Shown: positions 6,385-59,899 of the stretch, one piece after another | How the letters are laid out: the number at the start of each line of letters is the position of its first letter | Position numbering within the stretch: position 1 is the stretch's first letter | From: Geosiphon pyriformis uo1 | Taxonomy: Eukaryota; Fungi; Glomeromycota | NCBI GenBank assembly: GCA_016748015.1 | Contig: JAAOMT010000591.1 | Coordinates: 199,532 to 263,531, forward strand | Length of the DNA: 64,000 bases | Direction: 5' to 3' | The notes under the pieces: model-generated | Told to the model about the DNA's origin: nothing | Database searches by the model: none | The model's input: the letters and a program-made list of their open reading frames with translations, nothing else | Made by a program: the position numbers and the translations under genes

Positions 6385-6397
6385 TTATTCTCTCCTT

Positions 6398-7057: not shown

Positions 7058-7081
7058 GTCTTTATATATTCTTTTGATGAA

Positions 7082-8463: not shown

Positions 8464-8524
8464 CTTTTGTTATATTTTCGTGAGTATTGTTTTGGTTTTG
8501 TTATATTTTTGGATTGAAATGTTC

Positions 8525-14500: not shown

Positions 14501-14820
14501 ATCTTTACTATGTATGGTGTTCAATTTTTTTGTTGATTTCTATGATAATAAAGGCGAAATTGTGATTTGTTGGCAGGTTGGTATTTTGAATTAATTTACT
14601 GTAAAAAGCTTTTCTTGCCAATTCGATATTTATTAGTGTTCCTAACAGATAGACAATTCTTTTGTTGATGTAGAAATTGAAAGCTGATTCTGCTGATATG
14701 TGGTTGTGATTTAATCCCAATGTTGACAGTAGTGTTAAAATAAAGATTTTGCGAATCCTAAATAGTTTGCTCTTATGTTTTCTGATTCTGCCACTTTTAG
14801 ATTTATTCTCTATAGGATTA
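8525..14820 (-). pseudogene. E2 ORF1: gag-CCHC-aspartic protease-Cys-rich domain-dUTPase-RT-RNase H
   Basis: CYYCGRQRHLQIDC knuckle (~13000), LILDSGSAGSII (~12340), CKDC cluster (~11640), dUTPase, RT 9248-9787, RH 8621-9187; start position approximate. Confidence 0.9.
10357..10750 (-). pseudogene. dut: dUTPase domain within E2 ORF1
   Basis: Trimeric dUTPase motifs 1-5 recognisable: AEFDL, SRSSLA, IINAGYVGNI, RIAQAI, KGIQRFGSMG. Confidence 0.9.
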
Positions 14821-14823
14821 TAC

Positions 14824-14841
14824 CTTACAGGGAGCACCAAA
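14824..14841 (-). promoter_or_regulatory. E2 primer-binding site TTTGGTGCTCCCTGTAAG
   Basis: Directly follows the 5' LTR; complementary to a tRNA ending ...GGAGCACCA (candidates are elongator Met or Ile-UAU; identity is inferred). Confidence 0.85.
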
Positions 14842-15712
14842 TGTTACAGGTGACTATTTCTGGTGTTGGATTAAATAACAAACCCATAACTTGGTGCTCA
14901 AATCTAGTTGCAGTTGATAGTGATCTAAAGGTTTGTGTCTGAAAGGTTTGTATCCAAAGGGTTTGGTTGAGTTCTTTGTATAATGAACAGAGATTTAATG
15001 GTAATAGTTTTATCCATAGCTTCCTGAAACCACAGTTTCGTCAATTTTTTTCTCAGCTTGATGGCTGGTATTCCTCCTGGTAAGCTATCTTCAATCGAGT
15101 GTTCTATCTTTATTTCTGGGTCTTTTACCAGTCATGTTTATCCTGACGTCAGTACTCCGTGTGTTAATCTTCAATAGAGTTAGTAAACAACAATAAAATT
15201 AAAGCAAAAAATAAAGAAAAATAAAGAAAATAAAGAAAGAAAAAAAATAAGCCAAGGCGATTTGCAAGTTAGTATTCCATCAATAGCTGTGATCAAGAGC
15301 TATTGTTCCAATGTGGTTAAGTATTGATTACTATCAACATGAAGTGTTAATAGTGGCAGCAGGTTTGAGATAACAAACAGTTATTTATTTGTGGTTTGGA
15401 AAGTTGTCCAGATGAAATTTAAACTGAGAGGTCTGTCTTTTTAGCTTCTAATTCTACTGTTATATATACATAATTGAGATTCCTCAATTTTTTAATTCTT
15501 CACAACAGGAATCCTGGAATTTCTGGAATCCTGCAATTCTTTTGAGAGGAATTCTGGAATTCTGGAATTCTGTGATTCTTTGTGAGAATCCTGTAATTCC
15601 TGGAATCCTGTAATTTCTGAGAGGAATCCTAGAATTCCATATTTTACTATGTTTACTTCTGATTAGTTAATAATTATGCTAATATATATTCCTTATATTT
15701 CTATGAGTAACA
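14842..15712 (-). repeat. E2 5' LTR
   Basis: Direct repeat of 5515-6384; flanked by the PBS and TSD. Confidence 0.97.
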
Positions 15713-18428: not shown

Positions 18429-18462
<34 letters not shown>

Positions 18463-25100: not shown

Positions 25101-28100
25101 GATATATGATATATTGTATTAATACACAATTCTTATTAATAACTGGGTAAGCAGAAAAATATTATTTAATGTTGTATAAAATTAAGCACTTTTATGTTTA
25201 AATAAATATTTACACAATAAAGATAAAATCTGGCAAATAATAAGTATTAAAGTTGAAGGCATTTTACCCAGTGAAATACTTGTCATTAAAAATAATCCAC
25301 TAGAACCTATTAAAACTGTTTTTATCTTAAATTCAGACAGCTTTTTTAACATTTTGAGTAATTTAAAACAATTCCATAAACACTACCAAGATTTAACATT
25401 CACTCAAAAAAAGCAAAAACAGTATTTAGAACAATTAAATACTAGATTCTGTAAATATTGTCTAATTCCTAGTGACTTCAAATATTGTGACAATTGTGAC
25501 TTTATTTACAATCTACTATTACACATAATCTATTCAATTTTTAAAAAAAAAACCAATCAGTAAATATGTATTAAAATCAAAATCAAAATTTAATTGTAAT
25601 TCAGACTCTGATAATAATAACAATAATGGTTCCAATTCTATCTACAATGGCAATAACAACAATTTCAATCTTAATTCCAACTCCAAACAATATATTATGC
25701 TCCCAAATCTTTTACAAAAGCAGAAACTTAAATAATTTAGTAATAATAATAAGAGTATTATGTCAGAATGTGCACATAATACTAATATAGGATTTGATTT
25801 TAGATATTTAAGAAAAACTGCTATTAGATTAGAACCTTATTTATGCACTAACATAGATTTAAAATTAGCACTAAAAATTTTGGCAATAACAATAATCCAA
25901 TTAGCTTTTAGATCTAGTTTAGTAAAAAAAATATTAATATTAAAGAAGAAATAATTGATGCAAAATATGTAGAAAATATTATTGTAATACTATAAAACAA
26001 TTCAAAAAAAAAATACACAATTAAACCAAATAAAAAAATAGTACAGACAATATACTTGTCTTTGGTTAAAATAAATCAATTAGTATTAATAGGAATGAAG
26101 AAAAATTTAGAGATTACAGCAAAAAAAATACATAAATTCAGATCTACAAGTAGAATAAAAATACCAGTTAATATGATGAAAAAAAAATTATTAATAAGAG
26201 AGAAATTATCTCTACTAATTAATCTATTTTTATTTTACTATATAACCAGTATATGTTAATTATAGAAAAAAAAATAAAGAATCAACCCTAAATTTTTGAA
26301 GCAAAATCAAATATTTATGAGTCAGAAAAAATTGGCATTACCAATTTTTACATATTAGCCAAGAATTATAAATATATTAAGATCCTAATACATAATACAA
26401 CTAAAAATTCTATAGAATTACCAAATGAAATTATTATTAGATACTTAAGCATTGAAATTAAAAATCAACTACCAACAATTATTCTAGATTTTCTACAATT
26501 TTCTAGATATGTGAATATTATATTACAAATAATTTACAAATGAGAAAAGTGTTATTTATTACAATTAAAACAGTTAGAATAAATAAACTTAAGAAATTTA
26601 GATTTACTTTAACATATACAACTTAAAATACTATTTAACAATTTTACTAATATTTTTATTAGTAAAAATGAATTTGACAGAACTAATATTATTTAGCATC
26701 AAATTAAAACTAGAGATATGATGTTAATTAAATAAAAAAAATACAAAATACTATTTGCCAGCTATAAAATTATTCAACAAGAAATTAACCAAATATTAAA
26801 CAACAGATTAATTCAATTATTAATAAGTTTATGATCTTTATCAGTAGTATTTGTTCCAAAAAAATTGGAAAAATCTGCTTTTGTGTAGACTATTGAAAAC
26901 TTAACAGTATTATTTATAAAGACAGCTATTTAACTCCATAAATCCAAAAATTATTCGATGTTTTTGGAAAAAAGAAATAATTTTTAATATTAAACTTAGA
27001 TAGTAATTCCTAGCAAGTAACTATAAATCTAACTGACAAAAAAAAGACAGTATTCATTACCAGAAAAAAAATTTTTGAATTTGATATTATGTTATTTAGT
27101 TTAACTAATGTTTTAGCCACTTTTTAATAGCTTATGGAAATTGTTTACACTAGATTGCTATGAAAATCTATAATAGTTTACTTAGATAATACCAATGTGT
27201 TTTTTAAAACATTTAACAACCATTTTCACCATTTTTAGCAAGTGTTTGAAAAATTAAAAAGAGTCAAACTAAAATTAAATGCTATTAAATGCTTTTTTGA
27301 GAAAACCAAACTCAAGTTTTTAGAATATGTTATGAGCAAAAACAGCATCAAAACAGATCCAGATAAAATCAAAATATTTAAAAACTTTTTAGTATTAATA
27401 AATCTTACAGAATTAAAAGCATTTTTGGAATTTACTAAATACTATTGCTGTTTTATTTAAAATTTTTCCAAACTGACTCAACTATTTTACCAGCTCTAAA
27501 CAAAAAATGTTAAATATAAATAGACTGAAATTCAACAAAAAGTTTTTAATATTTTAAGAAAAAAGTTTATTTAAGCTTTAGTATTGATCTATTCAGATCA
27601 TAGTAAGCTATTTGAAAAGAACTATAGAACTCCAGCATTAGAATATTTAGTTATTTATTGGACTGTTATTAAATAAAAAAAATACTTGAATTAAAAGTTT
27701 GATATATACACTAATTACAAAAAATTGACATTAATTCAGAAACAAAAATTTGAAAACAATTACCATATAAGATAAAAAATAAAACTATCACTATTTAATT
27801 ATATTATACATTATAAAAAAAGAAAAAAAAACAGAAATGCTAATGGCTTATCATAAATGAGACAAATCTAAAAACATTTTAACTCAAAAATATAACAAAA
27901 AATAAATACACAAAAATATTAACAACTCTAACATTATATTAATACTCAATAGTTCAAAAAAAAATTATCTCAAAACAACAAAACAACATAAAACAACAAT
28001 TAAAATACTTTATTACTTACTAAAATATCCTATATTAAAAAAACAGAAAATATTCAAACCAGCTATTCAGAATAATTACAGAATTAGAAAAAGAAACAAT

Positions 28101-31527: not shown

Positions 31528-33510
31528 CTACCAGTTTCTTTTAACAAAATATTTAGATTATAAGCAGTTGTTCTTATAAGGAAAATAAATAAAACCACTC
31601 TAAATAAATTCTTTGACATTTAAGTATTATAATTACTTATAGCTTTGGCTATATATACAGAATTTTTCTCAATTAAAAATGACTACTTTAATACCAATTA
31701 ATTAATTTGATTTGATTCAATAAATTCTATTACAGCTTTTTATTACAGTCCAATTAATTATAATCAGATTAATACTATTTAACCAAACTCAAAAAAAGTT
31801 ACAACAATCATTTTTTTTGGTATATCTATGAAAATTTTTTTGATAACTACAGTCTAATGTTATAAAATAGTTTTTTTAATATATTTTAATTGCCAATATC
31901 TTATTTTAATTACAATTAGTCTCTTGTAAGTTTTTCAATTCTATTTATATAATAATATTAATATTAATATTTATATTAAAGACTTTTTCTTAATGTTATA
32001 ATGTAAGTTATTTTTTAATTTTAATTGTTGTATATATTTATGTACTTTTTTTTAAAGACTGAACTAAAATTTATCTATTGTCTGAAATCTTCTTTGAGGT
32101 AATTTTTGCAATTGTCTAATGTGTTTTTCTAATTTAAAAACACAAAATATTAATAATCTTTAGCACTTTTTTTAATTTTTATAATAAAGCTTTTATCAAT
32201 TAATAACAATATAAATAATCTTGATTAGAAATTATTTTTTTAAGAAATTTAACTAATAAATAATACTTTTATTTAATAAATAATACAAATAAGTTTTTTA
32301 ATACTTTGAGTTGTGATAATTTAGTTTTTAATATTTTTTTCATTTTTTTTGATTAAAAGTTTTTATGGATATTTATTTTAAAAGTAAAGACTAAAAAATA
32401 AAGTAAAATTGTTTAATAAATTGTTTTTTTATGATTTGTTTTATGACTTGTTGTTTTTTTTAATATTAAAGCTATTATATATACATGTTTGTAATTCTAC
32501 AAGAAAACATATTGTAATGTTTTTTTTTCTGCTATTACCAATTGGGATTGGTCACTATTACAAACTGATACTTGTTATTATTGTAAGATGGTACTTGTCA
32601 CAATATTAATTATTATCTTTCTAGGATTATTATTGTGCTATATTATAATTAGATAATTTATATTATTTTATAATTTTTTTGTTAAATTCTTAAATTATAA
32701 TAGTAATCTGATCTAATTTCTTGTTTTTTAATATTATTGTTTATAATAATTACTTTTTTCTAAGTCAATAATACAGCTTTATTCATGTTTTTCTTTAATA
32801 TAAATGTAAATTTAATAATTTTTTCAAAATTTGAAAGAATAGTGGCTTCTTTAAAACCATTAATTATTGAAAAAAATTCTAATTGTCTGAATTTTGGCTT
32901 TTGCCAATTTGTTTTTTACTGCTAATAGATTGATATTCAAGACAAAAAAATTTTTAATAATTACTTCTATCTGAATTTTAATGATCTTAGAATTAATTCA
33001 TCTCTTGTCTAAAAATATATTGAGAAAAGTTAAATGAAGTTTTATTTTTTCTTTTATATTAAAGTTAAAAAAACCAAGAAAGACATTATGAATTATATTA
33101 ATACTAATCTTATTGGCTTTGAAAATAGTTATTGTCAAGTTTAAAAAAGACTTACTATTAATATCTTTTATAATAAAATTATTCTCATTATTATTAGATC
33201 TATTGTCCAAATCTGAATATATACTATTAAGACTTGACTTGACTAATAATATGTTTTTTTATTACTTGAGTATTTAATATTACCAAGAACAATCTTTTTT
33301 TTTTAAGAAAAAAACCACCAACTGGATCATAAAAAACCTCTTTGGGCATTTTTTTTAGACATGTTACTGCTTGAAGCAGCTTTTAAGTTTACAATAAAAG
33401 GGTTATTAAATTAAGAAATATTGACAATAAACAAGAAAAATAAAAAAACTTCTTTATCAAAATTATGCTTTTTGGGGAATTTGGGATGTAGGAGAAAAAG
33501 AAGTTTTGAT
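31528..33510 (-). mobile_element. Very decayed LINE L-1 (5' UTR and ORF1 N-terminal part)
   Basis: Aligns by eye to 51361-52480, including the 5'-end motif GGAATTTGGGAT...AGAAAAA. Confidence 0.75.
31858..32702 (-). repeat. Solo LTR, family C, inserted in LINE L-1 ORF1
   Basis: Homologous to 28922-29726; LINE sequence resumes after 32702; degenerate TSD CTAA/GTAA. Confidence 0.75.
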
Positions 33511-39853: not shown

Positions 39854-39984
39854 TTCAAATTATAGGAGATAATTTGAAGATAAATTCAGTTATTGGAGGT
39901 TCAACTACTTCTAGAAAACGTAAATTTGCAACCAACAGGCAGTTACAACATTCAAGAAAAGAGACCAAAAACCTCCGGTAACAT

Positions 39985-42900
39985 TTGGTGCTCTCCCATG
40001 GAAATAACACAGCAACAACAAAATTCAAAGTGGTGACCACACCAGATGCAACAATTTTAGAGTATTACCAATCAATTTACACACACTGCAAGCAAAGATT
40101 CAACATTCCAAACAGAATTGAAGTTGTCAAGAAATCAGTATACCAATACATTAAAAACTGCATCAACAATTATCTTTTTGGAAATTACAATATCTCAGAA
40201 GTTAGAAACAACCTTTACAATAATTTAGCACACTATTCATGGTTGGAAACTGAAGACCTTAACAGCGAAACACTTGCCACTTACTTTCATAAACTTAATT
40301 TTAACATTATTAAATACTGTGAAAAAACATATCCAGTGCAGTCTCAATACTCTATTGATTTTGAATTGGAAACAGAAACAAGCAACAAAGGCAAAAACAA
40401 ATTGAAGCAATACTCAAAAACCACCCCAAATACTCCAACACTACCAAAAACAACTGCCAACTATTTACAAACACCTGAACAAGGAACCAGTTCAAAACTT
40501 CTACTTACTATCACACCTTTTCCAGCTTTACTTGTACAAACACAAATGCCTAATTCACCCTTGAATCAATTTGCAAGACCAGAAGATTTTACATCACTCA
40601 GAAGTCCCATCAGACAACAAGAACTTTTTCAAACTAGTTCCAATCTCCTTGACTTTCTAGCTGAAAATCAAAGTAAACACTCTGAGACAGCAGCAAATGA
40701 AGAAAATGAACCTGAAATATCTAAAGAAGAATCAATAGACAGTGAAAATAAAGAAGACGAAATGACAACATACATCACAAAAATTCTTGAATTTAATGGA
40801 GAAAACATTGAGACCAGTCCCCAAGAATGGCTCGACCAAGTTACTAAAGCTGGAGATGCAAATGGATGGAATGCTGCCAGAATGTTAAGAACAATTCCTT
40901 ACTTTCTCAAAGGAACAGCAGAAGAATGGTTTGAAAACTTGGCCACCCCATTCAATAATTGGAATGCTTTCAAAACAGCCTTCCTTAAACAGTTCACTGA
41001 CAATAATACCTCCATCACCTTTCACAATCATTTTCAAAATATCAAACAAGAACCCTCTGAATCTGTTATAACTTATATTGAGAAATTCAACAAAATTCTC
41101 AAACAAATTTGCCAACTCGAAACAAACAATTATTATTCCGATGCTCAAATCTTGGATCAATTTATCGCTGGTCTAAAAGATAAACTAATTAAAAAAGTTC
41201 ACCCACATGTGCCAGAAGATTTAAACTCTGCCATACAGTATGTGAAAAGATACAAAATGGCCATGGAAGAGGCCAATTGCACAAAACTTGTAAATTTGGC
41301 AATTGGAGAAACCAGTTTAGCAGCTGAGAAAAAAATTGACCAACTCATAAAGAAGGTTGAAAACTATTTCACCAATTAACAACAACAGCAACTCCAAAGA
41401 TATCAACCACCCCAAAGACGAAATCAAAATAACTTTGCACCACTTTCTAATAACCAGTCTTAGAATTGTCATTACTGTGGAATTTTTGGCCACTGGAAAA
41501 GAGATTGCAGAAAGCTACAACGAGACCAACAAAATAGGAGTAATCAACATTACCCTTTACCACAGTAATCTTATTATTAACTACCACCACCAGCTTACTA
41601 TCCACCAAGACCCCAATACCAAAATAACTATTATCAGCCTGCCCCACAGCCAATCCAACAGCAATACCAACAACCACCCACACAACATTATCAAGTACTT
41701 GCTCGAAGACTGATTACACAAAATCAATTCACACCACAAAACCAATACTAAGTAAACAACAATAAAATCAGTTTAAACAACCAATTGGTTCCCCGAAATT
41801 CCACTCAACTAAGACCCAACCACTACCACACTCAACCCAGTTATTTAACAATGCCAAAAGAACAGGATTTTCACTATACTGCACCCTTAGAAGATAGAGC
41901 TGTAACACAACAACAAAACTCTTTCTATACTCTCACTACAATCCCACCAGCCAGAATCACTGAAAATGCTAACCTTTCAGATATATTTTCTTTTGAGTTC
42001 AAAGCAAATAAGTCATCATTTCTGTTTAGCAATGGAACCGCCAATGAACAAAAAGCAATTACGGCTATGTACACTGAAGCAGAAGTCGAAGGAAAGATAA
42101 TTCACTTGATCCTAGACAGTGGATTTGCCGGAAGCATTATTACCTACTAGTTAATGCAACAGTTGAAGAAAAATGTCGACCGACCAGCTCAAACAGTAAT
42201 CGTCACTACTGATGGCATAAAAAAGACCCCAGTAGGAGAAATTGACAATTTTCTGTTCACTCTTGATGGAATCACCATTCCAGTCAAAGTTCTTGTAATA
42301 GATGCACCCCAGTACCAAGCTCTCATTGGAAATGATTGGCTTCAAAAAGCCAATGCTAATCTGAATTGGGAAACACAAGAGTTAACAATCTCCTACCAAG
42401 GACAACATGCCCAGATACCTGTCATTTGTGGTACATTCAACAAATGTTCTGAAAAAGCCCTGGCTTTTGAATTCGAACCGAAAGAAGAAAAACCTCTCAT
42501 TGAAACATTCATGGCTCTTAGATCAACGTCCAACTGGGCCAATAAAACAGAACAAGAACATTTTACCTCACACTCTGAACCCAAAACCTCTGGATGGAAT
42601 ATCCCTTACTTAAAACCCGAACCAAGGAAACAATGCCCCTATATTCTTCTTAAATGTAAGGACTGCCACAAAAAACTATCATCAATGGGAGCCTGCATTT
42701 CACCTGAAGAAGAATATGAGAATCATACTTGTTATTACTGCAAGACTTGCTACAGAGAATGATGGGGCCATCTAATAAAAAGAAGCGGAAAATGGGATAA
42801 CACCCCTTGTTTGACTTGTGGAAATATGCTACTGGAAGAATGTAATTGGATTAATGTAGCTATGAAAGGAGGAGTCTGTGATCAGACCTGCCAATATGCT

Positions 42901-45648
42901 TTATCAATTTCAGAAAAAGTAAAAAGAGAAACACCCTTTAATGCAGCATACAACAGTGCTCTCAACAAACTTTATCACTACCTCCATGATGTCGAGATGA
43001 TTTTCAACCTAGCAATGGCATTAATTAATGGAGCTACCAAAGAAAATGTTTGTCAAATGAAGGAAGCAGAATACATTGAATACATTATAGAATTAGCTGG
43101 ATTTGATTATGAAGACGAAGTAGAAGTTTACCACCAAATTGCAATTCACACCTACCCAATCCAAGAAGCTCAAATTTAACAATTAGAGCAAATAAACATT
43201 AGGCTATGTGAAGAATGCATTATGTCTTGTGATGAACAGTGGTGTCCTGAATGCTACACTCTTAGTATCCCCTTGCCCAGCAAAAATGATGAGAACAAAA
43301 TTGAATTTGGAGAACTTGAAGCAACAAAAAAAATTGAAACAACACCCATCTACCTTATCAAAAATCAGCCTGCCTTACAACTTAAATACTTCAACAACAA
43401 CAGACAAGGAATAAAATCCGAAAAAGCACATGAAATTGATGCTGGATATGACCTAAAATATTCAGGCAAGGATACTCTTGTTCTCAAACCCAAATCTCTC
43501 ACAAAAATCAACCTCAAAATTGCACTCAAAATCCTGCCAGGAGCAATAGTTCAAATCACCTCCCAGTCCTCTCTGGTAAGCAAAAGAATTAATGTCAGAG
43601 GAGGAATAATTGATGCTGGATATACTGGAGACATTACAGTGATGCTTCAAAATGAAACTGACAAACCATTCAAGATTGAACATGCTGAAAAAATTGCCCA
43701 AGCTATTTACCTACCCCTAATCAACATTTCGGGTTTGCAACTAATCAATAAAAAAAAACAATTAGGAAAAAGTAATAGAGGAACCCAAGGTTTTGGTTTA
43801 ACTGGACGATTCACAGTTCCAGTTAATATAGCTCTTAATACACAGAACAAATCCCACCAGATTCTCAGACTTCCATAACCAATTACCATCTTACCCTTTG
43901 AAGAACATTTGGAAATCTACATCTGCCCAAAGCCAACAATCACACAACAAATTTTTGAGTCCAATGAACAAGTCTGCTTGGAACATAATATTTCAATCCC
44001 AAACATTTATATTCCAGAAGGAACAAAGAAAGTCCGAGTTACTTTTTACAACTCCAATAATTACCCCATAATTTTATTAAATAATTTAGAAATTGGAGTT
44101 ATTCACAGTAATATATTTCAACAAAAATTACCCCAAACAGTTCCCAATTTCTCTGAAATTATTGGACATTCACTACCAAAAATCAACCCAAACCCCAGCT
44201 CCGAAAACTACCATGTTGTCATAAAAAAACTATCTCGAATCAACATGGGACAACTTGAATTACAACAACAGACTCAGCTCAAAGAGCTAATTGCAGAATT
44301 TGCTGATATCTTTGCTAAAAACAACAATGACTTAGGAAGAACCAATTTGGTCTAATACCAAATTTATACAGGAGATGCCAAACCAAAAAGACAACAAGCA
44401 TATTGAGTTGCTCCAGAAAGCCACCAATTCATCTGAGAAGAAGTACAACAAATGCTTAACAATGAGTTCATCCAATCCTCCATGAGTCTTTGGGCTTCAT
44501 CTGTAGTGCTAGTTAAAAAGAAAAATGGAAAGATCTAATTTTGTGTTGACTATCAACAACTCAACAGTGTTACAATTGAAGATGCCTACTCCTTTCCCCA
44601 GATTGATGACATGTTAGATGCCCTTGGGAAATCCAAATACTTTTCAACACTAGATTTAAAAAGCAGTTACTGGCAAATTGCTATGGATCCCAAAGATTGC
44701 CCCAAAACAGTATTCATCACCTAAGACAGAAATTACGAGTTCAATGTAATGTCTTTTGGATTATGCAATGCACCAGCAATATTTCAGAGATTAATGGATG
44801 TTGTGTACCAAGGACTTCTTTGGAAATCAGTAGTCGTTTATCTTGACAATACTAATGTTTATTCTCCATCATTCGAATTACACTTAAAACACCTGCGAGA
44901 AGTTTTTCAATGATTATGAAAAGCAGGACTAAAACTCAACATCGAAAAATGCTATTTTGGAAAAACAAGCTTGGCTTTTCTTGGGCATATTGTTAGTAAA
45001 GATGGAATCAAACCAGACCCTGGAAAAATCAGTGTTGTCAAAAACTTCAAAACTTCTCGAAACACTACAGAACTAAGAGGATTCATAGGATTAGCATCTT
45101 ACTATCGGAAGTTTATTAAAAGATTCTCGAAAATTGCAAAACCCCTCAACCAGCTCACCACCAAAAACGTTGAATACAAATGGACTACCAAACACCAAAA
45201 AGCTTTTGAAATTCTCAAAGAAAAACTAACAACAGCTCCAATCCTCACCTACCCGGATTTCAGCAACCGATTCCAATTAGCAACAGATGCCTCTTATACT
45301 GCCTTTGGTGCTATCCTATCACAATTGAATGACAATAGAAATGAGCGAGTAATTGCCTATGCCAGCAGAACATTAAAACCAGCTGAAAAGAATTATTCTG
45401 CCACAGAACTAGAAACAGCAGCCATAATTTGGGCCCTACATTACTTCAACCTTTATCTTAGGCCTAAAGAATTCAATATTATTACTGATAATATTGGACT
45501 CAAATGGCTTCAGAACAAAAATACTCAGCTGAATGCAAAACAAATCTGATGGACAGGATTTCTAGCAAACTATCAATACATAGTACATCACAAACCAGGA
45601 AAACTCCACACCAATGTTGACTGTCTCTCCAGAATGAAACAAGATTAG
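39985..45648 (+). pseudogene. E5 ORF1: gag-CCHC-protease-Cys-rich domain-dUTPase-RT-RNase H in one frame
   Basis: ORF pieces starting 39985, 41785, 42154, 42811, 43222, 43909 and 44971 share one frame; CHYCGIFGHWKRDC, LILDSG, VVVYLDN, LATDAS; true start codon not identified. Confidence 0.93.
43425..43806 (+). pseudogene. dut: dUTPase domain within E5 ORF1
   Basis: DAGYDL, SQSSL (from SRSSL), GGIIDAGYTGDI, KIAQAI, RGTQGFGLTG. Confidence 0.95.
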
Positions 45649-45699
45649 AAAACACAAAAACCAACACTCAACTTAACCAACCAAAAGAGCCAACAAACA

Positions 45700-47084
45700 A
45701 TGAATTCAAAAAACTACAACAATCTCAAGCAATATTTAGAAACATTAACAATCTCAACAGATTGGTCTTCAGATAAAAAACATCAACTACAACAACAAAC
45801 CAAACAATATTTTCTACACAACAACATTATTTATCATCGAAATTTCAAAAACCCAAACAAACCACTCAGATTAATACAAGAACAGGAAAAAGAGACCATA
45901 TTATACAACATGCACTCAGATTCTTTATCAGCACACTTCAGAAAAGATGGCACCACCCAAAGAATACTAGAATACTACTTTTGGCCTTGAATGAGAAAAG
46001 ACATTCACAAATATGTCAAATCTTGTGATAGTTGTCAAAGAAGAGGAGGAATACGCCCTACTGAACCATTAAATCCAATCAAAGTTGGACAACCCTTTAA
46101 CTGAGTTGGTATCGATTTAGTTGGACCACTATCTATTACCACTCAAGGAAACTGTTATATTGCAGTAGCTGTAGACTATCTTACTAAATGGCCCGAAGCC
46201 AGAGCCATTCAACGAGCAGATGCAAAATCAGTAGTAAATTTCATCTACGAAGACATTATTTGTAGACATGAATGTCTAATTGAACTTTTATCTGATCAGG
46301 GGAACACTTTGTGAACAATCTGATACAAAAAATTTGCGAATGATTCAATGTTAAAAGACCTCTGTCTTTGCCCTACCATCTACAAACAAATGGACTTGTG
46401 GAACGTTTTAACAGAACATTGTGTGAGTTATTAGCCAAAGTCTCAACTGATTTTGAGCAAGAGTGGGATATCTTTATTCCATTAGTGTTGCTAGCATACA
46501 GAACACTAAAACAAGATACTACAAAACACACACCATTTGATTTAACTTACGGAAAGACAGCAACATTACCAATTAGTTTCACAGTAGAAACATACCCAGC
46601 ACAACCAATCGATGAAAACAATTTCTAAAAAACACTTCAGCGAAGAGCCTACACTCTGCTTAGCACATTGGAAAGAAAACGATGAATAGCAGCCACCCAT
46701 ATTGAACACTCCCAAGCTCGACAAAAAGAACAGCATGATGACAAATTGCCTCCAGTCACCAATAAATTTAAAATTGGAAACAAAGTTCTCTTACACAGAA
46801 CTAAAGCTGAAAAACAATGGAGTGGAAAATTTGAAAATAAATGGGATGAACCATTCTTTATCCATGAAGTTCTAGGCAACAGATCATACAAGCTAAGACT
46901 TGATAACAAAATTCTAGCAAAAGTTGCACATGGAGATTGTTTGAAACACTATCATTCCAAAAACAATTCTGAACCATTAATTCCACAAATTAGTACACAT
47001 TCCCCTTTAGTCAATCCCAAAGATATTCTCTGAAACTTAGAACCAATAGTTGTCATTGAACAACCTTTCAATCTGAACACTTAA
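45700..47084 (+). pseudogene. E5 integrase ORF (MNSKNY...), one frameshift near 46300
   Basis: MHSD..AHF..CDSC, GIDLVGPL, SDQG, QTNGLVERFN, KWDEPF..LGNRSYKL. Confidence 0.92.
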
Positions 47085-47201: not shown

Positions 47202-47921
47202 ATGACTATTCCTCAAAACATTTAACAATTATCCCAAAAATTAATGTTAGCTTTAAAAACAATATTCGAATTATCCATTACTGTTACTGGAAACCACATT
47301 AATTATACCTAAACAGAAGTAGTTACAAATTTAGCCCCAAATTCATGAAAATATCACCCATATAAGAAGAACACAAAAAGTTATTCTGGAATTCACCTGC
47401 CAGAACTTTTAAAGCTTGCTTTAAGAGAAAATTTAATGCTCACTCCAATTAGTATTCTACCAAATGCTACAATTCAACAAAGACTTCAACTGTGTTTCAA
47501 TGAAGAAAACACTGAATATCCTCCAATCTATAGATATTTCCACATTGGAAAAACACTCTACAAATAAAAACTGGAACTTACAACAGCAAACCTCACAAAA
47601 GAAGCTATTCAGAAACAACTCCACAATGAATTCAAGACAACAGCTGGACCAACAAACAGTTGCTACAAGCTCAGAGCTGCTTTTAGACTTTATAACCTAT
47701 TCCACACCTGTGAAAATGTCCTACAAAACCCAATTTTACGACCTTTGAAGATTCAATACATTGAAAAGTTCACAGAACTGAAATTTCAACAATTTTCAGA
47801 CCAAATTTCTTCAATAATTGTGGATTACTATCTGGAAATTACAGACAGTACTTGGACTTTGATGGAGCTCAGTTTTGAGGAGAAGGTTATGTTACCAGAC
47901 AAAATTAGAGATATTATTTAG
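47202..47921 (+). pseudogene. E5 ORF3, divergent homologue of the family-A ORF3
   Basis: MTIPQNI.QLSQKLM ... YRYFHIGKTL ... AAFRLYNLF ... KFTELKFQQFSDQI aligns by eye with family-A ORF3; C-terminal frame uncertain. Confidence 0.7.
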
Positions 47922-48867
47922 CATGAAATTATCTTATAAATCTTATCATTAATTAGCATATATTATCATTTCAAATTATCACTTATTACATTAGCAAAAT
48001 GTCCGAAATTATCATTTAATTAATAACCCAATTTGTACACAACACAAATGTAACCTAATTGCAATGATCAAATCATGCAATACTCCAAACTATGTAACAT
48101 TCAAAAGTTCGCCGAAATTTGTAGAAATTCACCGAAATAATTGATAGTTCACCGAAATATCTAATAGTTCGCTGAAATAACTTGTAGTTCGCTGAAATGT
48201 ATCTTTAGTTCAGCGAAATTGTAGAAAATAGCAAAGTTCAAGTTCATAGAATAGTATTATGACAAGTTGTATAAAAGAAGAGCATCTCTCTTCAAGAAAA
48301 TGTATCTTACTTTAGATTTATCACTTAGAATCATTCTTACACCCACACAAAAAGAAATAAATATCAAATAATTCGAAAAACCAAATTCTTTAATTATTGT
48401 ACTTGGAAAATCCTCAAAAACCCAACTAATATTTTGAAATTGATTAGCTACCAATTTCAGTAAACTGTTAGTGACTCCAGGTCTAGATAGAAAACGTTTC
48501 TCTTAACAAAATTCTATTTCTTTTACATTTCTTTTATTTTTTTCTTTTCTTATTACAATCATTAGGGTAGTCTACAGACAAGATTCTTGTAGAAGAGTTG
48601 ACTTTCACAACAAAATAACTATACATTTTAGTGAGCTTCCAGACAAACAATTCCTGGGAAAGAGTTGATGTTTACTACAACGTAACTACATAAAGTAACT
48701 GGCGAAGAATTGGCCATTCCACTTATAAGCCCAGCAGTTCAAATTATAGGAGATAATTTGAAGATAAATTCAGTTATTAGAGGTTCAACTACTTTTAGAA
48801 AACATGAATTTGCAACCAACAGACAGTTACAACATTCAAAAAAAGAGACCAAAAACCTCCAGTAACA
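47890..48867 (+). repeat. E5 3' LTR (family B, ~978 bp)
   Basis: TGTTAC...GTAACA; follows the PPT; 20-bp tandem array 48104-48220; TATAAAA ~48270. Confidence 0.93.
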
Positions 48868-51800
48868 ACGTATTTAACAGCTCCAGAAGGCAACCCAACA
48901 CCATATCACCACTATGCTTCCACAGCTCATTAGAAATGCCAGACAAGCCAGCAGCCTTGTCATCAGGCAGACCCCCAACAACTGAGAACAGCTTACCCAA
49001 ACCGATTTTACGCATTACCCCAGAAAAAGTGTCATTCCATACATGATTTAGAGATGCATACTGGCGAGCCCAGAGTTCAGATACCACTGTAAGCACCACC
49101 CACTTCCTCATCCATTCCACCATAATCTTGTCCACCTTAGATTTCACCTCCACAGGTTCCAGAACCAAACCATTATCAACAACCAAATGATCAAGAATTA
49201 CCTTGCGAAAAGGCCAATCCAATATACTCCTTATCATGCCCTCTTTATTAGAAGCAAAACTCTTCATGCGTCTCTCTACAGCTCCTTTAATAGAAGCTTC
49301 CTCAGCCAACCTTGATTCAAACATCTTCAACTTCCTATATTCTTTGTGACTTGATGACAGGTACTTAAGAAGAACCATACTACTTACATCCAATCTAACC
49401 AAATCAGAAAACATGCAAGCTTTGGTCTCATCCAAAGTAGACCATTTCCTCATGAGACAATCAACTTCAAGCATGTTACTAGCGTGAACCACACCAACAA
49501 TCTTGGCAACGAATAACTCCAACCGAAAGAACTTTGAAGAATGCTTATTTCTAGAACATTAAAATTCACTAAACCATTGTCTGGAAAAAATTTTATCAGC
49601 AGACTCAACCATCACTTTTCCTAAAATTGCCCACATGGTATTCAAATCACCACCAGCTTTGGCATCAGAGAAGAGGTCCTTGATCAACAAAAGCTTAGCT
49701 GAAACACAATCCCTAAACTCAGACCACTTGGAAGCATCTGCATTCTTGACCTTGAACTTCCAACAATCCTTGTTAGCCTGCTTGCACAAACTATTTAGCT
49801 GAACATCCAAAAGTCCACCCAGACTAACTGACACCATAACAGCCTTGTGGTCTATATCGAAAAATTCTGAGACTGACCCAACCCAATGTTTAGCAACAGC
49901 AGAAAACAGATTCTCACTAACCAAAATGTAATCAATAGTTTTTTCTATTCCTCTTGAGTTGCTCCACGTAGAAGCCTTTGCCAACTGATGGCCAGCAAGT
50001 GAATTGACCAGACCAAGACCTAAGCAAAACCCATAACTTGCACTTCTCCCAGATTCATTTTCGTTAAAATTCTCACCCAAGACAACAAAATTGCTGACAT
50101 TAACAGCCTTAGCAATGAATGAATTAACCTCAGATGCCTGCCTAAAATGAATGCCCGGAGATGCACCAGTGTACAAACCAAGTACAATCACCGAAAGCTT
50201 GTCTTTGAACAAAAGACGCACCAAAATAACTTGATCAGGGATCTCTTCAATCTTAGAAACATGTCGAGCCAATAAACTGTTCATAATAATCACAACCTTA
50301 GCACCAACAAAACCCTTATTCAATTCCGAAGAAAAAATTCGCACTCTGTCGAACTTATCTGCAATCTATGGCCTAGTAGAAGACCTCAACTTTGTTTTTG
50401 TAATGAATGAGACCAAATTGCCAGAATTGCAATGCCAATGTACAACATCCTCCTGCTTGGCAGGGACATTAATTCCATGAACATTTTATGTAGTAAATTT
50501 CCAAACCAAACTGCTCATTGGGATGATAGCAGTAAAGAAGAACCCAAATCAGAACACAAAAAATCCAATCTCACCAAAACAGAACTGACTGAAGCCTCCA
50601 GAGCTAACATTTTAGACTCCAAGCCACCCACTTTGGTGGTCAGAATCTTTGAATTACTTGAACTAAAACCCCCATCCAACTCAGCATTTGAGAGAGGAGA
50701 AGAGGGTAATGTCAACACACCATCCAAAACCATATCCGAGTCCAAAACAGGAGCCACAGGTACAGAGCCAACCAAAGAAGAAGTATCAAAAGATAGCACC
50801 ATGGGCACCAATTCAACAAAATTCAATTTTCTAAGAATGCCAGAAACCTGGTCAGCCAAAAGTCCAACCGAGCATCCAAGAGAGACCTGTTAATTGGGAA
50901 GGAGGGAGCACCACCAACCAAACCCAAAGCACCTGACAAAGAGGGGCCAAAACCAAAACCAGAACCAGAGGAAGAGCCACCAGCAAAGGAAGCAAAAGAG
51001 ACCATCTGAGCCCAAGATTTGCCACCAAAGACAGCAGAGTGAGAGATAGGAACATTTTTTTTTGTATATAACTTGGCTAAATGAAAGCAATCCACACTGA
51101 AAACATGTCTTCCTTTTTTTAAAGCAATAGAAGGCACAGGAACAAAAACATCAGAAGCATCACATTCCAAGGCTGAATGTCCAAATCTCCCATACTTTTC
51201 ACACCAAACCAAGCCTAACCTAGCCCAAGAAAGTCTCACACTGCCAAAAATTGGTTCTGTGCGAAAAACAGCTTCCAGTTTCTCCTTAGAATCAAAACCA
51301 ACCACAGCACAGTAAACCCTATTGTCCATTTCAAATGACCAATTGATAATACAAGTTTTTCCGTCAGCCTCCTTTAACAGATTGCCAAGATCATAAGCCG
51401 TCATTCCCACCGGCAAAGTAAACAACAGTGTTTTGAACCAATCTCTAGAAGCCCAAGTCTCGCGATCTCCCACAGCCATAGTTACACGCACCAAATCTTT
51501 CCTGATTAGGAATAACTACTTAGAAGCCAATTGCACTGCCTGTTTCAATTTGGCAAACTCAACCACAGTCTTCTGCCATAGTCCAACCAGTTGTACATGG
51601 ATCGACTTAATTTCTCCAAATTCAGCTACTGCGGCAATAATCATATCCTTAGGCATATCCATGGGAATTTCCTTGATTACTACGGCCTGATCTGAGCAAA
51701 TTTTTTGTTTTTTAAGATTGCTGTTTATGATGATTCCCTTTTTCCTAGCCAATGATGCAGCTCTTTCCATGCTTTCTTCTGACATGAATGTAGATCTAAT

Positions 51801-52480
51801 GATCCCTTCAAATTTTGAGGAGATAGTGGCCCCCCCAAAACCATTGATTCCTGAAAATAATTTCCTTATGACCTGAGTTTTGGCCATTGCCAATTTCTCT
51901 TTTACAGCTGAAAGATTAATGTCCAAAGCAAATGATTTTTTCACGGTGACTTCCACTTGAGTTTTAATGATTTTGGGATCCACTCACACCTTATCCAAAG
52001 AAAAAAACTTACAGGGGGGAAGGGAAACTTCCTTTTCTTCTTCCATGTCATAATTAATAGAGCTGAGAGGGAAGCCGACAGTTGCACCATTATTGAAATG
52101 CTTGGCTTGAAGTGTATTCATTCTAGAATCAGGTACTTCTTTATCTTCAGAAGCTTCTTTATCAGTATCTATGCCATTAAACTGCCCAACCACATGATCA
52201 GACCCACCACTTTCGAGAGTTGCATCACTACTTGAGAGCTTGGTACCACCAGGGAGTTTCTTGATTTTATGACCTGAACCACCACTAACCGAACCAGTGG
52301 TCGAAACTCTGGCTGACTTTCTCTTAACACTAGGGCCACTCATAGTAGTAGCTGGACTGACAACAAAAGGGTTTGTTTCTTGTGAAATAGTGGAAGACAG
52401 TATATAAAAAAACAGAAAAACTTCTTTCAAAATTTTGACTCTTTTTCAGGAATTTGGGATAAAGAAGAGAAAAAAGTTTT
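48868..52480 (-). mobile_element. LINE L-2 5' half: 5' UTR, ORF1 (52343-50515), ORF2 AP endonuclease and start of RT (50518-48868); cut by E5
   Basis: ORF1 with RRM-like segment and CEKYGRFGHSALEC knuckle; ORF2 NVHGIN, ETKL-type site, GENFN, TIDYI, DIDHKAV, KAAGLSGISNELWK. Confidence 0.93.
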
Positions 52481-54089: not shown

Positions 54090-57000
54090 AAACTTCTTTC
54101 TCTTTTTCATCCTAAAAATCCCAAAAAAGAGTCAAAAGTTTTTTCTGAAAGAAGTTTTTACAATTTAGTATGATAAATCCAAATTTTTTTTCGATTTTGA
54201 GGTCATGGTCAGCCCTAGTATTACTGTTATAAAAAAGACTGTTAAAGATTCTGGCTCTGGTAGAAATTTCAGGCCTGTTTTGCCAAGAAAAAAGAAAAAA
54301 AGTGGTGCCTTGGAAGAGAATATTGAAAGCAAAAATAATTCTGTTAAGAAGCCAAGTGGTCAATCATGGGGGTCTGAAACCAGTGACACTACCGAATTTG
54401 ATAGTGTTAACATGGAAAAAAAATGTCTGGTTAAGGAAACCAGTTTTGACTATAATGAAAGTAGTATTCTCATTGATGAGGATCTTAATCAGACACCTAA
54501 AAAACTGGGTGTTAAGACTAAAAAAGCATTGGGCAAGCCATTAGGGAAAATAGATTTTACAAGTCATGGTGATATGAATAATGTTCTGTCTGATAGTTTT
54601 TTAGAACTTCCCCCTCCTTTGAAAAATTTGGTTAATGTCTCTGTTCAGAAATCTTTTGCTTTGGACATTGGGCTGGATAAAGTGGCTGGAAAATCTTCTT
54701 AGAATAAAATTTCAACAGTCAGAAAATTATTTTCAGGAATCAATGGTTTTGGGGAGGTTTTTATTCCTTCAAAATTCTCTGGAATTATCTGAGTGACATT
54801 TACTTCTGAATTGGATTTGATAAAAGCCACTAAAAAGACTACTGATACAGGGATTATGGTAAACACCAATCTTAAAAAATCTACTGGACATTCAGATTGG
54901 GCTGTGATAATAAAAAAAATTTCAGTTAGAACATTGGCTGAGGCTGTCCATGCTGTGCTTGCTAAATTTGGTTCTGTTAAGACAATTAAGATGCAATTGG
55001 TAAAGCTATGGCAAAAGGCCATGGTCAAATTTGCTCAATTAGATCAGGCTGATTTGGTTGCAGCTAGATAGTCCATTTTAATTGGGAAAAATGCCATAAG
55101 AGTGACCAAGGCTAATGCAGACAACGAATTATGAGATACAAAGGATTAGCATAGGGCTTTGCTCTATATACTGCTGATGAGCATCAATGCTCATAATATT
55201 TGGGACTTCATTAACTCTGTAGATGAGAAAACATGTGTTATTGATTAACACTCTGTTACATATGCTCGGGCCAGGTATGCTGTAGTTTGTTTTGATTCTG
55301 CTGCTTTAATTAATGCTGTTATAAAAACTACACCTGTCTTAAAGGGTGCCAATTTGTGTTGGTCTTACCTAAGTTCTGTTAAGTATGCTAAGTATAGAAA
55401 TTTGGGTCATACATCTCTGAGTTGTTCTGTAAGTAAGAATGTTTCTCCTAGTGGCATAACTCACAAGATATGATTAGATGATGATAAAAGCAGGCTGGCT
55501 TCTATTTATGTTAGATGCTCTACTCCTATCTCTTGTTCTGTTTCTTTTGGTGGTGTCTCTTAGGTCAATATTGTTAATAGATCTTCTTTTCCTCCTTTTT
55601 CTGTATGCAATAGCTTAGCTGCTTCTGGTTTTTTTTCAGAGATGAGACCTACTCTGATGGTGTCTATGGAATTGAATAATAGGTTTGCTGCTCTTGAGTG
55701 TAATCTTACCAGCCTTGCAGAATGCATTAACAAGTTGGCTAAGAAATTGGACTTACTTGGACCAATGGTTTCTCAGTCTAGCCCTGGATGTCAGCCGTTG
55801 ATAACCTTTTTATCACAGAATCAAGAGGCAAATATAGTAATGAATGAGGGTTCAAGTGTGGCCACTGGTGGTGAGACTATTGCAGGAGTGGCAGTTTTTG
55901 ACTCTTCAGTTGTCTCCAAAATGGAAGATACTCTAAACAATCTTTCAATCATGGTTATGGGCCTCTTAGCCAAAATTGACAATGCTGATTTGGTTTCTAT
56001 TGCTCTCTTTTCTCAATAATGGAGCTTGTATAGAAGTTTACTACATGCAATGTTTGAAGTCTCAATGTTTCTGCTAAGCAGGAAGACATTGTTTGGTGGC
56101 ACAGAGAATCTAAAAATATGATGTCTATTGTTATGGAAACAAAATTAAGATCTAATGTTAGACTATAGATCATAAACAGATTTGATGAAGTGTGCATTTT
56201 CACATCTGGCTTGGATAATAGGTTTCTTGGGGCTGAAGTGGTAATAGTTATGAACAATTCTCTGACTCAACATGTTTCCAAGGTAAAGGAGATTTCTGGT
56301 CATGTTATTTCAGTGTGTCTTCTTTTTAAAGGCAAGATTCTGGTCTCAGTTGTTGGTTTGTACGCTTGTGCTTCTCCTGGTGACTGGTTTGGCCAAGCAC
56401 CCAGTATTAATTTTTTCATAGCTTAGGTGGTCAACTCTAGTAATTTTGTTGTTTTGAGTGGTAATTTCAATAAGGGCAAGTCAATAAAGAGTGCAAGTTT
56501 TGGGTTTTGTTTGAGTTTGGGTTTGGTTAATTCTTTTGGTGGACATTTTTTGGCTGAAGCTTCTATGTGGAGCAACTTGAAAGGCATTGAAAAAGTCATT
56601 GATCACATTTTTGTTAGTGGGAGCCTGATCTTAGCTGTGGCCAGCCACAGAGTAGAATCCATGACTGAGTTTTTTAACACTGATTATAAAGCTGTTTCAG
56701 TTTCAGTAGGCTTGGGTGGTCTTTTGGACATGCGGCTGGATGGCATATGTAGGAATACTAATAGAGATTACTGGAAATTCAAGCTGAAGAACGTGAATAC
56801 TGATAACTGGGGGTGTTTTATAAAGTGCTCTTCAGACAAGTTTCTGGAAAAGTTGGTTGTATTTCATGATGCAGAACATAGTGGTGATTTGAATGGCATG
56901 TGGGATGTTCTCAGAGAAGTAACAATTGATTCTGCTGATGTAATCTTTTCTAGACTCTGGTTTAGCAAATTTGATAGTATAAGAAACAAAATTTCTTCAA

Positions 57001-59899
57001 AATTTCATGGTTTAAAGCTGCTGATGTTTAAGATTGTCAATAGTATGAAGACAAGTCTGAGTTTGGAGACTGACCATTTTGTTAACACTTAAGCAGATTT
57101 AGATAATGATGAGGCATCCAAGATTAAAATTATAATCAATAGAGGCACTAGAATTGAGAATATTGTGCACCACATTTCAGTTGTCAAGAAAAGATACTGC
57201 AGGTCCAAATATCATGAATCTAAGATTGCCAGAAATGAGTCTATCAGGGTGGCTATGGCAAAGCATATGGAAAATTTCTGCTCAGATAAGAGAAGAATAA
57301 TAAAGAACATTTTAGACCAGTCCTTTAGAAAGATAGTTCTCAATTACTTGATTGTTGATGATGAGCTTATCTTGGAGCTCCAGGCTGTCAAGTCTTCAGT
57401 TGATATTATAATAGAAGATTGGATAAGGAAATGCTTGGTCTCTGGTGTTTTTCCAGATTGGTGGCTTGACTAATACACTTCTTTAAATTATGTTGATAAT
57501 GATGTATTTTCGGAGGTTATGTGTAATATTGGTTTAGACAAACTTTTGGTGGTTGTCAAAAAATTACCCAATGGTAAGACCACTGGTCTTTTTGGGATTC
57601 CCAATGAACTTTGGAAGCACAGTGGTTCTCTGGTTCTCAATGGTCTTCTGAGCATTCTCAATAGGTGCTTGGAATCTGGTAGTGTTTCTACACAGTGAAG
57701 AAAATCTTGGGTTTCTATAATTTCTAAACCATACAATTGGAAAGATACTCTCACCAACATTAGGCCAATAGCACTAATTGAGACTGCATGAAAGATCTTG
57801 TCTAAAATTCTTTCAGACAAAATTTCTTTGGCTTGTAGTAAGTATAATGTCTTGTGTGGCAACAACTTTTCAGTGTTAAAGGGCACTTCCACACAATTCT
57901 CCATTTTTGCTGTTGGCTCAATTGTTGAAGATGCTTTGGAGAAAGATAAGAAGTTGTGGTTGGTTTTTCAAAATATGTACAAAGCATATGACTCTGTTGG
58001 TTGAACCCATTTGTGCAATAGTCTGGTTAGGATCAAAATGTGCTCTGCTTTATAAGTTTCTTTGGTGATATACACAATGGAAGATACAATCAGGTTATGA
58101 TGAATTTTGGTCTGTCTGATAGTTATATTGTGCATGATGGTTTAGATCAAGGAGGAGTGTTTTCTTTACTGCTATGGCAAATTTTTTATGACCCATTGCT
58201 CTATAAAATTAAAAAACATGAACAGTTGTATGGTTACAGATTGTGCTTGAAATTCTATACTAAGTCTGGTAAGCCTGATCTAAATAATAGCAGTACTTTA
58301 TTTTTTGCTGTCGGTGTCTTTGTTGATGACACGATTTGAATTGGGAACTGTTTAACAGTGACGCAAAATATTTTAAATATTGCTAGCAAATTTTTTTCTA
58401 TTAATGACATCTCAATAAATACTGACAAGACTGTCACCATTCTTATTAACCAAGGTGCTCAGAGAGCTGAGTTATTCATTAATAGATCAAGGATTTCTAT
58501 GGCTAAGAGGAGTAAATTTTATCAATATTTGGGAATTTTCTTGTTTATTGAGGGCTTGTTCAAGCCAAGTCTTACCAAGACTTATGTCAATGTCAGATTT
58601 TTTTTGAATGTTGTTCTAAGGAAGACCATTACTGAAAAACGATTTTTGTATCTGGTTTTAGCTGTCCTGCAGCCTATTGTTTGCTACAGACTTCAATTTA
58701 GCTTTGCATCTAAAAGTGTTTGCAAAAAATAAGACAAGTTATTGAGAAAGGGGCTTAAACTTAAGGCAAATTTGCCTAAAGACTTTCTTAGTGTGGCACT
58801 ACATCATCCCGAGTTGTATCACCTGAAACCTTTTGAACAGGTGCTCACTAAAAGTTTGATGGCCAATCTGATCAATTTTAACAATACAGGTGAGACTCTT
58901 AACAAGTTTTTTAAATACAAGGCAATGGACTTATAGGCGGCCAGCTGGATGCTCTGGCACCCTCTCAGTTTTCCAGTCATGTTGTCTATTAGTATTTTGA
59001 ATTGTTTTTTAGCTGGTGCTACACACACACTTACTTTGTGCAACACTTCCTTGAATGGTGTTCTTCTTAATGTTTTTAAAGCCAAGTCTGGTGTGCCAAT
59101 TCTAAACGTGTTGAGTGTAAATGGTTATTTGGATGTGAGAAAATCTCTCAGGAAATATGGTCTTGTTTTTGCCAACCAATTGTTAGATTATTATGGTGTA
59201 TGTTTTACTTAGAACACTTTTTACAGATGGAAAAGGCTTAACCCTAGAGGTTCAATTTCCACCTGGTTTGTTTCTATTTCCAATTTTATCAAAAGTGGTG
59301 GTTTGAGCAATAACATGATTGTGGCTTTTCATTCTGCTCCTGCCAATATTGTTTGTGATACTGGTTTTATTTCTGAACAGTTGCTTGCCACAGAGCTTGG
59401 TTCTATTGATGTGTATATGGATGGTTCTGTTAAGAGTTTGGAGTCTATTAGTGCCTGTGGTGGTGTTGTGGCTTATTTTTCAAAGGCCAACATGAGTATT
59501 GGGGTAAAAGTTATTAAATTACTGTTCTCAATGCTGGTGGAGTTGCAGGCCATTGCTTTAGTGTTGGAATGTGTTCCTAGATTTAGCACAGTCACTTTGT
59601 TTATGAACAGTTAGGTGTTGCTGGATATATGTAAGTTTGAAGTAAGTGGTTTTGGTCCTGATTTTTGATGCAAATGCTGAATTGAGGGAAAGCATATTCA
59701 TCAAGCTATTTTGAATAAAAATTTGTCAATCATGTGGAAGAAAGTCAAAAGATATTCAGGCATTATCAAAAATGAGCGTGTGGATTTTTTTGCAAATGTG
59801 GCAACTTTGTTTAAGTCTGTATTGCCTCTAAGTGTGCCATGTTGCTTTTTTAGTGTTGAGAACAAGCCTGTTTTTGGGAATGCATGTTATTTTGTTAGT
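54090..59899 (+). mobile_element. LINE L-3: ORF1 (54205-56019) and ORF2 APE-RT-RNase H (56019-59899); 3' truncated and decayed
   Basis: ETKL, GNFN, IDHIF, RPIALIET, KAYDSV, GLDQG, FVDDT, YLGI; RNase H VYMDGS, VELQAI, FMNS, WKKVKRYSG..NERVD. Confidence 0.95.

Follow-up and report, generated by a model that had tools for sequence, protein, structure and literature searches.

In the textbook account, integrase reaches the retroelement particle only as part of a Gag-tethered polyprotein, and an integrase made from a separate gene needs another means of translation and delivery. For the Metaviridae, the accessible part of PMC3248453 gives as the rule that integrase lies within a single pol polyprotein. 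A dUTPase between protease (PR) and reverse transcriptase (RT) is known in fungi (available sections of PMC2864245 and PMC6431247), the dUTPase-bearing elements including PosPlaTy3-5, Tuber Tmt1 and Phanerochaete elements (PMC2864245). Here, we analysed a 64,000-nucleotide stretch of contig JAAOMT010000591.1 (positions 199,532 to 263,531), hereafter the window, which holds five decayed copies (E1 to E5) of long terminal repeat (LTR) retroelements in which integrase (IN) very probably has a gene of its own, behind the stop of an open reading frame (ORF1) that runs from gag to RNase H (RH).

Our best explanation as a whole combines a true stop, a separate integrase gene with its own ATG and a restart of translation across a short unstructured spacer, and we give it a probability of about 0.6. 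That the separate gene is real and lineage-wide, and no artefact of decay, is in our judgement highly likely. No account of integrase as an ORF of its own came up in the literature search, whose scope did not extend to Repbase, supplements, the Geosiphon genome paper or subscription journals; element libraries there could already contain the layout. A split integrase is not described for Glomeromycotina elements in the available text of 10.1101/2021.03.30.436303, PMC11952901 and PMC13465315, nor for integrase-like DNA transposons in that of PMC6839031 and PMC5751038.

The junction behind RNase H

In the A+T-rich window, decayed retroelements lie nested, and five copies, all decayed, cover the RNase H-integrase junction. 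E1, E2, E3 and E4 form family A (73-84% alike in DNA), and E5, at 55-62% to the rest, is family B. E3 and E4 are 84% alike and E2 is inserted within E3, so the copies are not all independent. As the original prediction had placed it, with correct coordinates, a stop lies at the identical position in all five, four codons behind N.D.LS[R], the motif that ends RNase H. Equally borne out were the A/C-rich spacers of 30, 61 or 51 nt that follow it, and behind them an aligned integrase start, ATG in E2 (8463) and E5 (45700) and ATA in the more decayed E1, E3 and E4. The junctions are composed as follows.

1077-1112, + strand: E1 junction; TAA (1077-1079), 30-nt spacer with a second TAA (1101-1103), start decayed to ATA
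4993-5028, - strand: E3 junction; TAA (5028-5026), 30-nt spacer with a second TAA, start decayed to ATA
27869-27904, + strand: E4 junction; TAA (27869-27871), 30-nt spacer with a second TAA, start decayed to ATA
8525-8527, - strand: E2 TAA ending ORF1 (read 8527-8525), from the five-copy alignment
8464-8524, - strand: E2 spacer, 61 nt, made of the 30-nt form and a 31-nt insert, with integrase out of frame with ORF1
7082-8463, - strand: E2 integrase gene with its own ATG, decayed; N-terminal helix, zinc finger, DDE core and C-terminal module; Pfam Integrase_H2C2 and rve
45646-45648, + strand: E5 TAG ending ORF1
45649-45699, + strand: E5 spacer, 51 nt, A/C-rich, unstructured and ATG-free; G+T 0.10, minimum free energy 0.0
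45700-47084, + strand: E5 integrase gene with its own ATG and A at -3; decay includes a core frameshift

Among the 197 codons covered by all five copies, the junction codon alone is a stop in 5/5. The two families are about 60% identical in DNA and differ in this stop, which is TAA in the four family-A copies and TAG in E5. CAA>TAA changes per copy amount to 1/37 in E2, 4/37 in E1, 7/21 in E3, 14/41 in E4 and 2/19 in E5, and the chance of parallel decay at one codon is about 3.5e-5 if the copies are independent, or about 1e-4 if E3 and E4 count as a single copy. The junction stop also reads TAA in a loose-end consensus of 21 contigs from run X1. Its first base was not among the 40 differences listed (904 further rows; the listed X1 rows mostly above about 86%), which gives a weak bound only. 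The run X1 base table at the E1 junction had no C at either stop, but it missed the expected controls at 1076, 1080 and 1112 and was not used. Gln at the junction codon together with spacers that are always a multiple of three, the combination named in advance as contrary to a separate gene, was not found in the sequences examined. The decay itself is C>T on either strand and depends little on the neighbouring base (CpA 0.29, CpC 0.32, CpT 0.39, CpG 8/12 in the alignment of E1, E2 and E4), unlike the repeat-induced point mutation of Neurospora, which is CpA-specific.

The spacers of the window occupy frames 0 and +1. The 31-nt insert of E2 repeats the unit that holds the second TAA, an E2-like insert is present in an 8-contig consensus of run X1, and contigs of this run carry inserts, some of them related 31-nt ones, of 31, 31, 32, 34 and 63 nt relative to E1 (sizes by arithmetic from joints); out-of-frame spacers thus appear to have been copied. 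All spacers are ATG-free, and A stands at -3 of the integrase start. Their G+T content falls in the lowest 0.03-3% of element windows, E5 being at 0.03%, and the E2 and E5 spacers are unfolded (lowest 1-2% of element windows), with E1 at 24%. Two details of the original prediction stood only in part. First, integrase of E2 is indeed out of frame with RT-RH through its 61-nt spacer, but its frame does not run cleanly from the ATG, since codon 8 is a TAA (8442-8440); 99% of the depth in run X1 reads CAA there, which marks it as a decay stop. Second, the further in-frame stop claimed for the family-A spacer is TAA in E1, E2, E3 and E4, and reads CAA in the 8-contig loose-end consensus, which makes it less firm than the junction stop.

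Ends and starts in intact relatives

First, we searched for the E5 RT-RNase H end among longer proteins and compared the best 120 of 3202 matches. Of the 110 with at least 51% identity, 84 end 1-38 aa past the motif, with a median of 4, as in the window; 19 have a tail of 66-357 aa without integrase match, six are Rhizophagus clarus gene models joined to integrase and lacking the last RNase H motif, and one ends before the motif. Eight of ten distant plant or arthropod matches continue far past the motif, like a normal pol. In twelve close matches from the same 120, a single ORF spans gag to RNase H, as in E5. In a quick tree, the window RNase H lies inside a 111-row group without ORF-level fusion (Shimodaira-Hasegawa-like approximate likelihood ratio test, 85), and the close matches P0234 and P0253 fall outside it. 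In a subgroup of the relatives (P0239, P0209, P0244, P0249 and others; L001:1-345), RNase H is followed by an acidic domain of 150-360 aa, rich in Cys and His, which bears a conserved PWW motif near its end and has no Pfam match; 15 of these relatives make up one well-supported branch.

Second, a 428-aa integrase relative was used as query in a search that could return only proteins of 235-749 aa, and the best 120 of 1575 matches were compared. No RT or RNase H domain occurs in any of them, 99/120 begin with MD, MN or ME, and for 16 the start is a second Met some 17 residues further on. In the stand-alone family of intact integrases of about 425 aa, Met fills the first alignment column in 55/56 rows, and the ATGs of E2 and E5 both align to position 1 of the family profile. 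The nearest named relatives are Geosiphon pyriformis gene models, with 56% and 69% identity. A search without size limit, on 50%-identity representatives, returned many separate clusters beginning at position 1, and in a tree of 123 rows after a coverage filter (FastTree) the window integrases belong to a 38-row group without ORF-level fusion (support 94). One distant fused RT-RH-IN protein, P0359, has a Met at the family's start-codon position, a hint at how the split may have come about.

Third, seven pairs of RT-RH and integrase matches come from contigs of exactly equal size (null mean 1.76, maximum 6 in 400 offsets), and six of the seven also have a common source and fit the contig, which suggests from sequence sizes that the two ORFs may sit on one contig in these six. 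In the DNA of one relative (L001), a pol-tail homologue is followed by stops and then by an integrase ATG. Together with the fixed Met, the single E5 frame and the third ORF described below, these intact relatives support the predicted layout of three ORFs (gag-PR-dUTPase-RT-RH, IN and ORF3) with integrase separate.

Routes to a separate integrase

It had been predicted that such an element needs another route to integrase, by reinitiation, a spliced subgenomic RNA or readthrough; readthrough is now disfavoured, and the other two remain. Judged from the sequence, reinitiation is somewhat better than an even bet as the way integrase is translated. A minority of the ribosomes that terminate at the ORF1 stop would stay on the genomic RNA, cross the ATG-free, A/C-rich 30-61 nt and restart at the integrase ATG. 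The low integrase output per Gag-RT polyprotein expected from this would be of use in an element whose Gag and RT are read in a single frame. Spacers that are ATG-free, poor in G+T and little folded, with A at -3, suit ribosomes that restart after terminating and crossing them. For LINE-1, a termination-reinitiation over a 63-nt spacer has been proposed, pneumoviruses span up to 29 nt, and fungal viruses reinitiate at overlapping stop/start sites (PMC5972666, in its accessible part). With no Gag tether, integrase would then have to enter the particle in another way, most plausibly by attaching to the RNA from which it had just been made, or else it would meet the cDNA after the particle opens. 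The analogy with foamy virus Pol suggests that it may bind element RNA or RT.

Several points weigh against the combined explanation of a separate gene and a restart. Reinitiation after an ORF of about 1900 codons is normally inefficient without special signals, as is well established and also stated in the available text of PMC5972666. Stop and start neither overlap nor abut in any of the five. A comparison of E2 with E5 showed no conserved structure upstream, and the 100 nt ahead of the stop fold differently in the decayed E1, E2 and E5. On the side of the relatives, the integrase search speaks for a fixed start and not for the absence of fusion because it was length-limited. Moreover, gene callers can open an ORF that follows a stop only at a Met, which leaves the constancy of its position as the evidence. 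Fused integrases were also returned by the size-unrestricted search, though only at 28-43% identity, and a wider 69-row integrase group includes four fused rows. Both trees are quick ones without bootstrap, with plant and arthropod database proteins as outgroups. One of the seven equal-size pairs is impossible and must be chance, because its coding length exceeds the contig. Finally, the locus scans yielded no stretch, from an intact relative in this lineage, that reaches from RNase H into integrase (one locus in metagenomes; three distant ones in viral sequences; 77 in prokaryote genomes, namely insertion sequence elements and a few distant contaminants).

Among the competing routes, an integrase gene read from a subgenomic RNA, produced by splicing from the 5' LTR region to an acceptor within the spacer or by an internal promoter, survives best, and we consider it possible although unlikely. 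Subgenomic RNA is the usual route for third ORFs, and ORF3, further downstream, also needs one. An AG with a branch-point-like TRAY upstream of it stands just before the ATG in both E2 and E5, but the same acceptor-like motif precedes 40/161 ATGs in E2 and 24/137 in E5, which is chance level; moreover, these acceptors read AAG and the spacer has no pyrimidine tracts. The foamy virus Pol is made from a spliced RNA (accessible part of PMC3705302). However, in either family no more than about 60 nt separate the stop from the integrase start, a closeness that a subgenomic RNA does not need.

A low rate of readthrough or frameshifting, giving an RT-RH-IN polyprotein that is packaged in the normal way, is very improbable. 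Readthrough of TAG or TAA is used at the gag-pol junctions of some retroviruses, and the 30- and 51-nt spacers are in frame, that is two of the three sizes in the window (1 in 9 by chance), which also tells against a restart. Readthrough needs one frame, and spacers in more than one frame argue against it: the complete E2 has 61 nt, and the run X1 contigs have the inserts listed above. Family A adds a second in-frame TAA, a Met fixed in 55/56 relatives is unexpected at a protease cleavage site, and in the long-tailed relatives the end of pol lies a long way from the motif. Internal entry of ribosomes at the spacer, independent of upstream termination, has a similarly small chance. A-rich leaders can support cap-independent starts in yeast, and this spacer is A-rich and unstructured; however, it shows no positive sign of such entry, is as short as 30 nt, and its sequence does not separate internal entry from reinitiation.

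An intron that removes stop and spacer, thus fusing RT-RH to integrase, is slightly less probable still. Six NCBI gene models of Rhizophagus clarus do join RNase H to integrase, but the five whose junction was examined lose the last RNase H motif, and with it the catalytic Asp, at the join, and the joins differ between two families, as would be expected from ab initio prediction. A shared in-frame splice in E2 and E5 was rejected as a candidate, only weak GT sites being present and none usable in both. Lastly, stops arising by parallel C>T/G>A decay of a sense codon, in copies of an ancestor with an ordinary fused pol, are scarcely credible: decay is heavy and has made one Trp codon (E2 8623) a stop in 4/4 family-A copies, which counts for it, but E2 and E5 are only lightly decayed, the 21-contig consensus is TAA, and, as the stronger evidence, intact relatives beyond the window copies stop at the same place.

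Element identity and comparison with known systems

The copies are dead Ty3/Gypsy-derived LTR retrotransposons, a derived variant from a lineage that is likely one of Glomeromycotina fungi. E2 is a complete LTR element with 871-bp LTRs of 93% identity, TG...CA ends and a 4-bp target duplication (CCAG), which means that its integrase is not a separate DNA transposon. A primer-binding-site (PBS)-like TGG motif directly after the 5' LTR and a purine run before the 3' LTR are present in both E2 and E5, and the domain order gag-PR-(dUTPase)-RT-RH-IN is kept. Integrase is of Ty3 type: it matches Pfam H2C2 and rve, the relatives have invariant H, H, C, C, D, D and E, and the best PDB match of the profile is the Ty3-G Gag-Pol (E 5.9e-50). 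The canonical metavirid position of integrase inside the pol polyprotein is not found here, nor is the Ginger1 arrangement of an integrase alone between terminal inverted repeats and without RT, direct LTRs with gag and RT being present instead. Some unplaced stand-alone integrases returned by the size-unrestricted search could be Ginger-like. The remaining parts of E5 and E2 are these.

39854-39983, + strand: E5 5' LTR remnant, 3' end only; 94.6% identical to 48738-48867; ends GTAACA, then TTTGGTG as in E2
39984, + strand: E5 PBS-like TGG motif, directly after the 5' LTR remnant
39984-45645, + strand: E5 ORF1, gag-protease-Cys-rich region-dUTPase-RT-RNase H; Pfam Retrotrans_gag, dUTPase and RT_RNaseH, RT by tblastn
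47202-47878, + strand: E5 ORF3, ending just before the polypurine tract (PPT); last motif common with E2 ORF3 (7/8 residues)
47890-48867, + strand: E5 3' LTR (TGTTAC...GTAACA), by repeat comparison
14842-15712, - strand: E2 5' LTR, 93% identical to 5515-6384; PBS-like motif at 14841
8528-14841, - strand: E2 ORF1, gag-PR-dUTPase-RT-RNase H, with one decay frameshift; Pfam, tblastn
6398-7057, - strand: E2 ORF3, about 219 codons; ATG 24 nt after the integrase stop; 63% identical to E1 ORF3
5515-6384, - strand: E2 3' LTR, with the PPT ahead of it

In E5, a single frame (39856-45648) runs from gag to RNase H, with 19 stops inside from decay. Its ORF1 frame is apparently open into the LTR end (39856-39983, repeated at 48738-48867, +), and Geosiphon gene models carry that translation, from which gag may start inside the LTR. 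The protease has no Pfam match in the decayed window ORF and is seen in the relative P0239. Between protease and dUTPase, both families have a Cys-rich region of several hundred residues (42400-43400, +; 10800-12000, -) that matches neither a Pfam family nor the RNase H tails. ORF3, of about 220 codons, is kept in E1 (2516-3172, +), E2 and E4, and no Pfam family scores above the cut-off. It starts 24 nt after the integrase stop in E2 and 117 nt in E5, and ends at the PPT; families A and B are very divergent in it except for the last 8-residue motif, which is kept with synonymous changes.

Elsewhere in the window, E2 (5515-15712) disrupts RT-RNase H of E3 (within 4770-20300, -), and further copies are nested or truncated nearby. 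The family-A LTR has tandem repeats of roughly 40 nt in its U3 (3260-3478 and the E2 LTRs). A second, decayed, non-LTR-like element type with endonuclease- and RT-like text lies at 48836-52445 (-), 54169-59614 (+) and 32706-32946 (-), and three ORFs of these copies have no Pfam match.

The separate integrase would be no marginal oddity if the host is Geosiphon pyriformis or a relative, given that LTR elements make up 41.2% of the Geosiphon pyriformis genome (PMC11952901, in the part available). At even odds, the copies belong to a large, old fungal LTR clade with integrase outside the polyprotein, a stop-restart that would tolerate both overlapping and spaced junctions, delivery to the cDNA without a Gag tether, and a possible role as stepping stone to Ginger-type DNA transposons; this would be a retroelement life cycle outside the Ty3/retrovirus model. 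Intact relatives appear to be present in Rhizophagus and soil data, which would make reinitiation after a long ORF and Gag-independent delivery directly testable. For annotation, the warning is that gene models invent introns across the RNase H-integrase junction. Surveys in which the rve domain decides on the label 'Ginger' (PMC5751038, as far as its available text goes) may count these integrases. Public gene models P0002, P0003, P0198, P0199, P0217, P0243 and P0251 splice element pieces together (integrase-gag, RNase H-integrase) and are likely annotation artefacts.

Compared with Ty3/Gypsy elements such as yeast Ty3, the window element is alike in its TG...CA LTRs, PBS, PPT, domain order and type of integrase, and differs by an integrase outside pol, by gag and RT in one frame and by the extra ORF3. 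The comparisons that follow rest on the accessible parts of the papers cited. In mammalian LINE-1 (ORF1-ORF2) and silkworm SART1, too, the retroelement RNA is bicistronic and an enzyme ORF follows the stop (PMC5972666); these are non-LTR elements whose downstream ORF is the whole RT, whereas here integrase alone is split off behind an ORF of about 1900 codons, and SART1 has a stop/start overlap where the window copies have spacers. The victorivirus HvV190S, the hypovirus CHV1 and caliciviruses resemble the proposed stop and restart, and show that fungal ribosomes reinitiate after a long ORF (PMC5972666); they use an overlapping stop/start with upstream signals, in contrast to the 30-61 nt spacers of the five copies, in which no signal was identified. 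Foamy virus Pol is a replication enzyme made without a Gag tether and yet in need of packaging (PMC3705302), but the whole PR-RT-IN comes from a spliced RNA and integrase is still cleaved from Pol, unlike in the window element. In plant Tat elements, the extra RNase H in a separate ORF raises the same packaging question, although the detached domain is an accessory RNase H and integrase stays in pol (PMC10508981, PMC13468544). A viral contig met in the locus scans (L002, about 7400-8092) has a DNA-polymerase-B-like ORF that stops a few codons short of an integrase ORF of its own; the contig is Polinton-like and of an unrelated lineage. Finally, Ginger1 and Maverick/Polinton share the stand-alone Gypsy-like integrase ORF, Ginger1 also the TG...CA ends and 4-bp target duplication (PMC6839031), whereas the window integrase lies within direct LTRs, behind gag and RT, and serves a retroelement.

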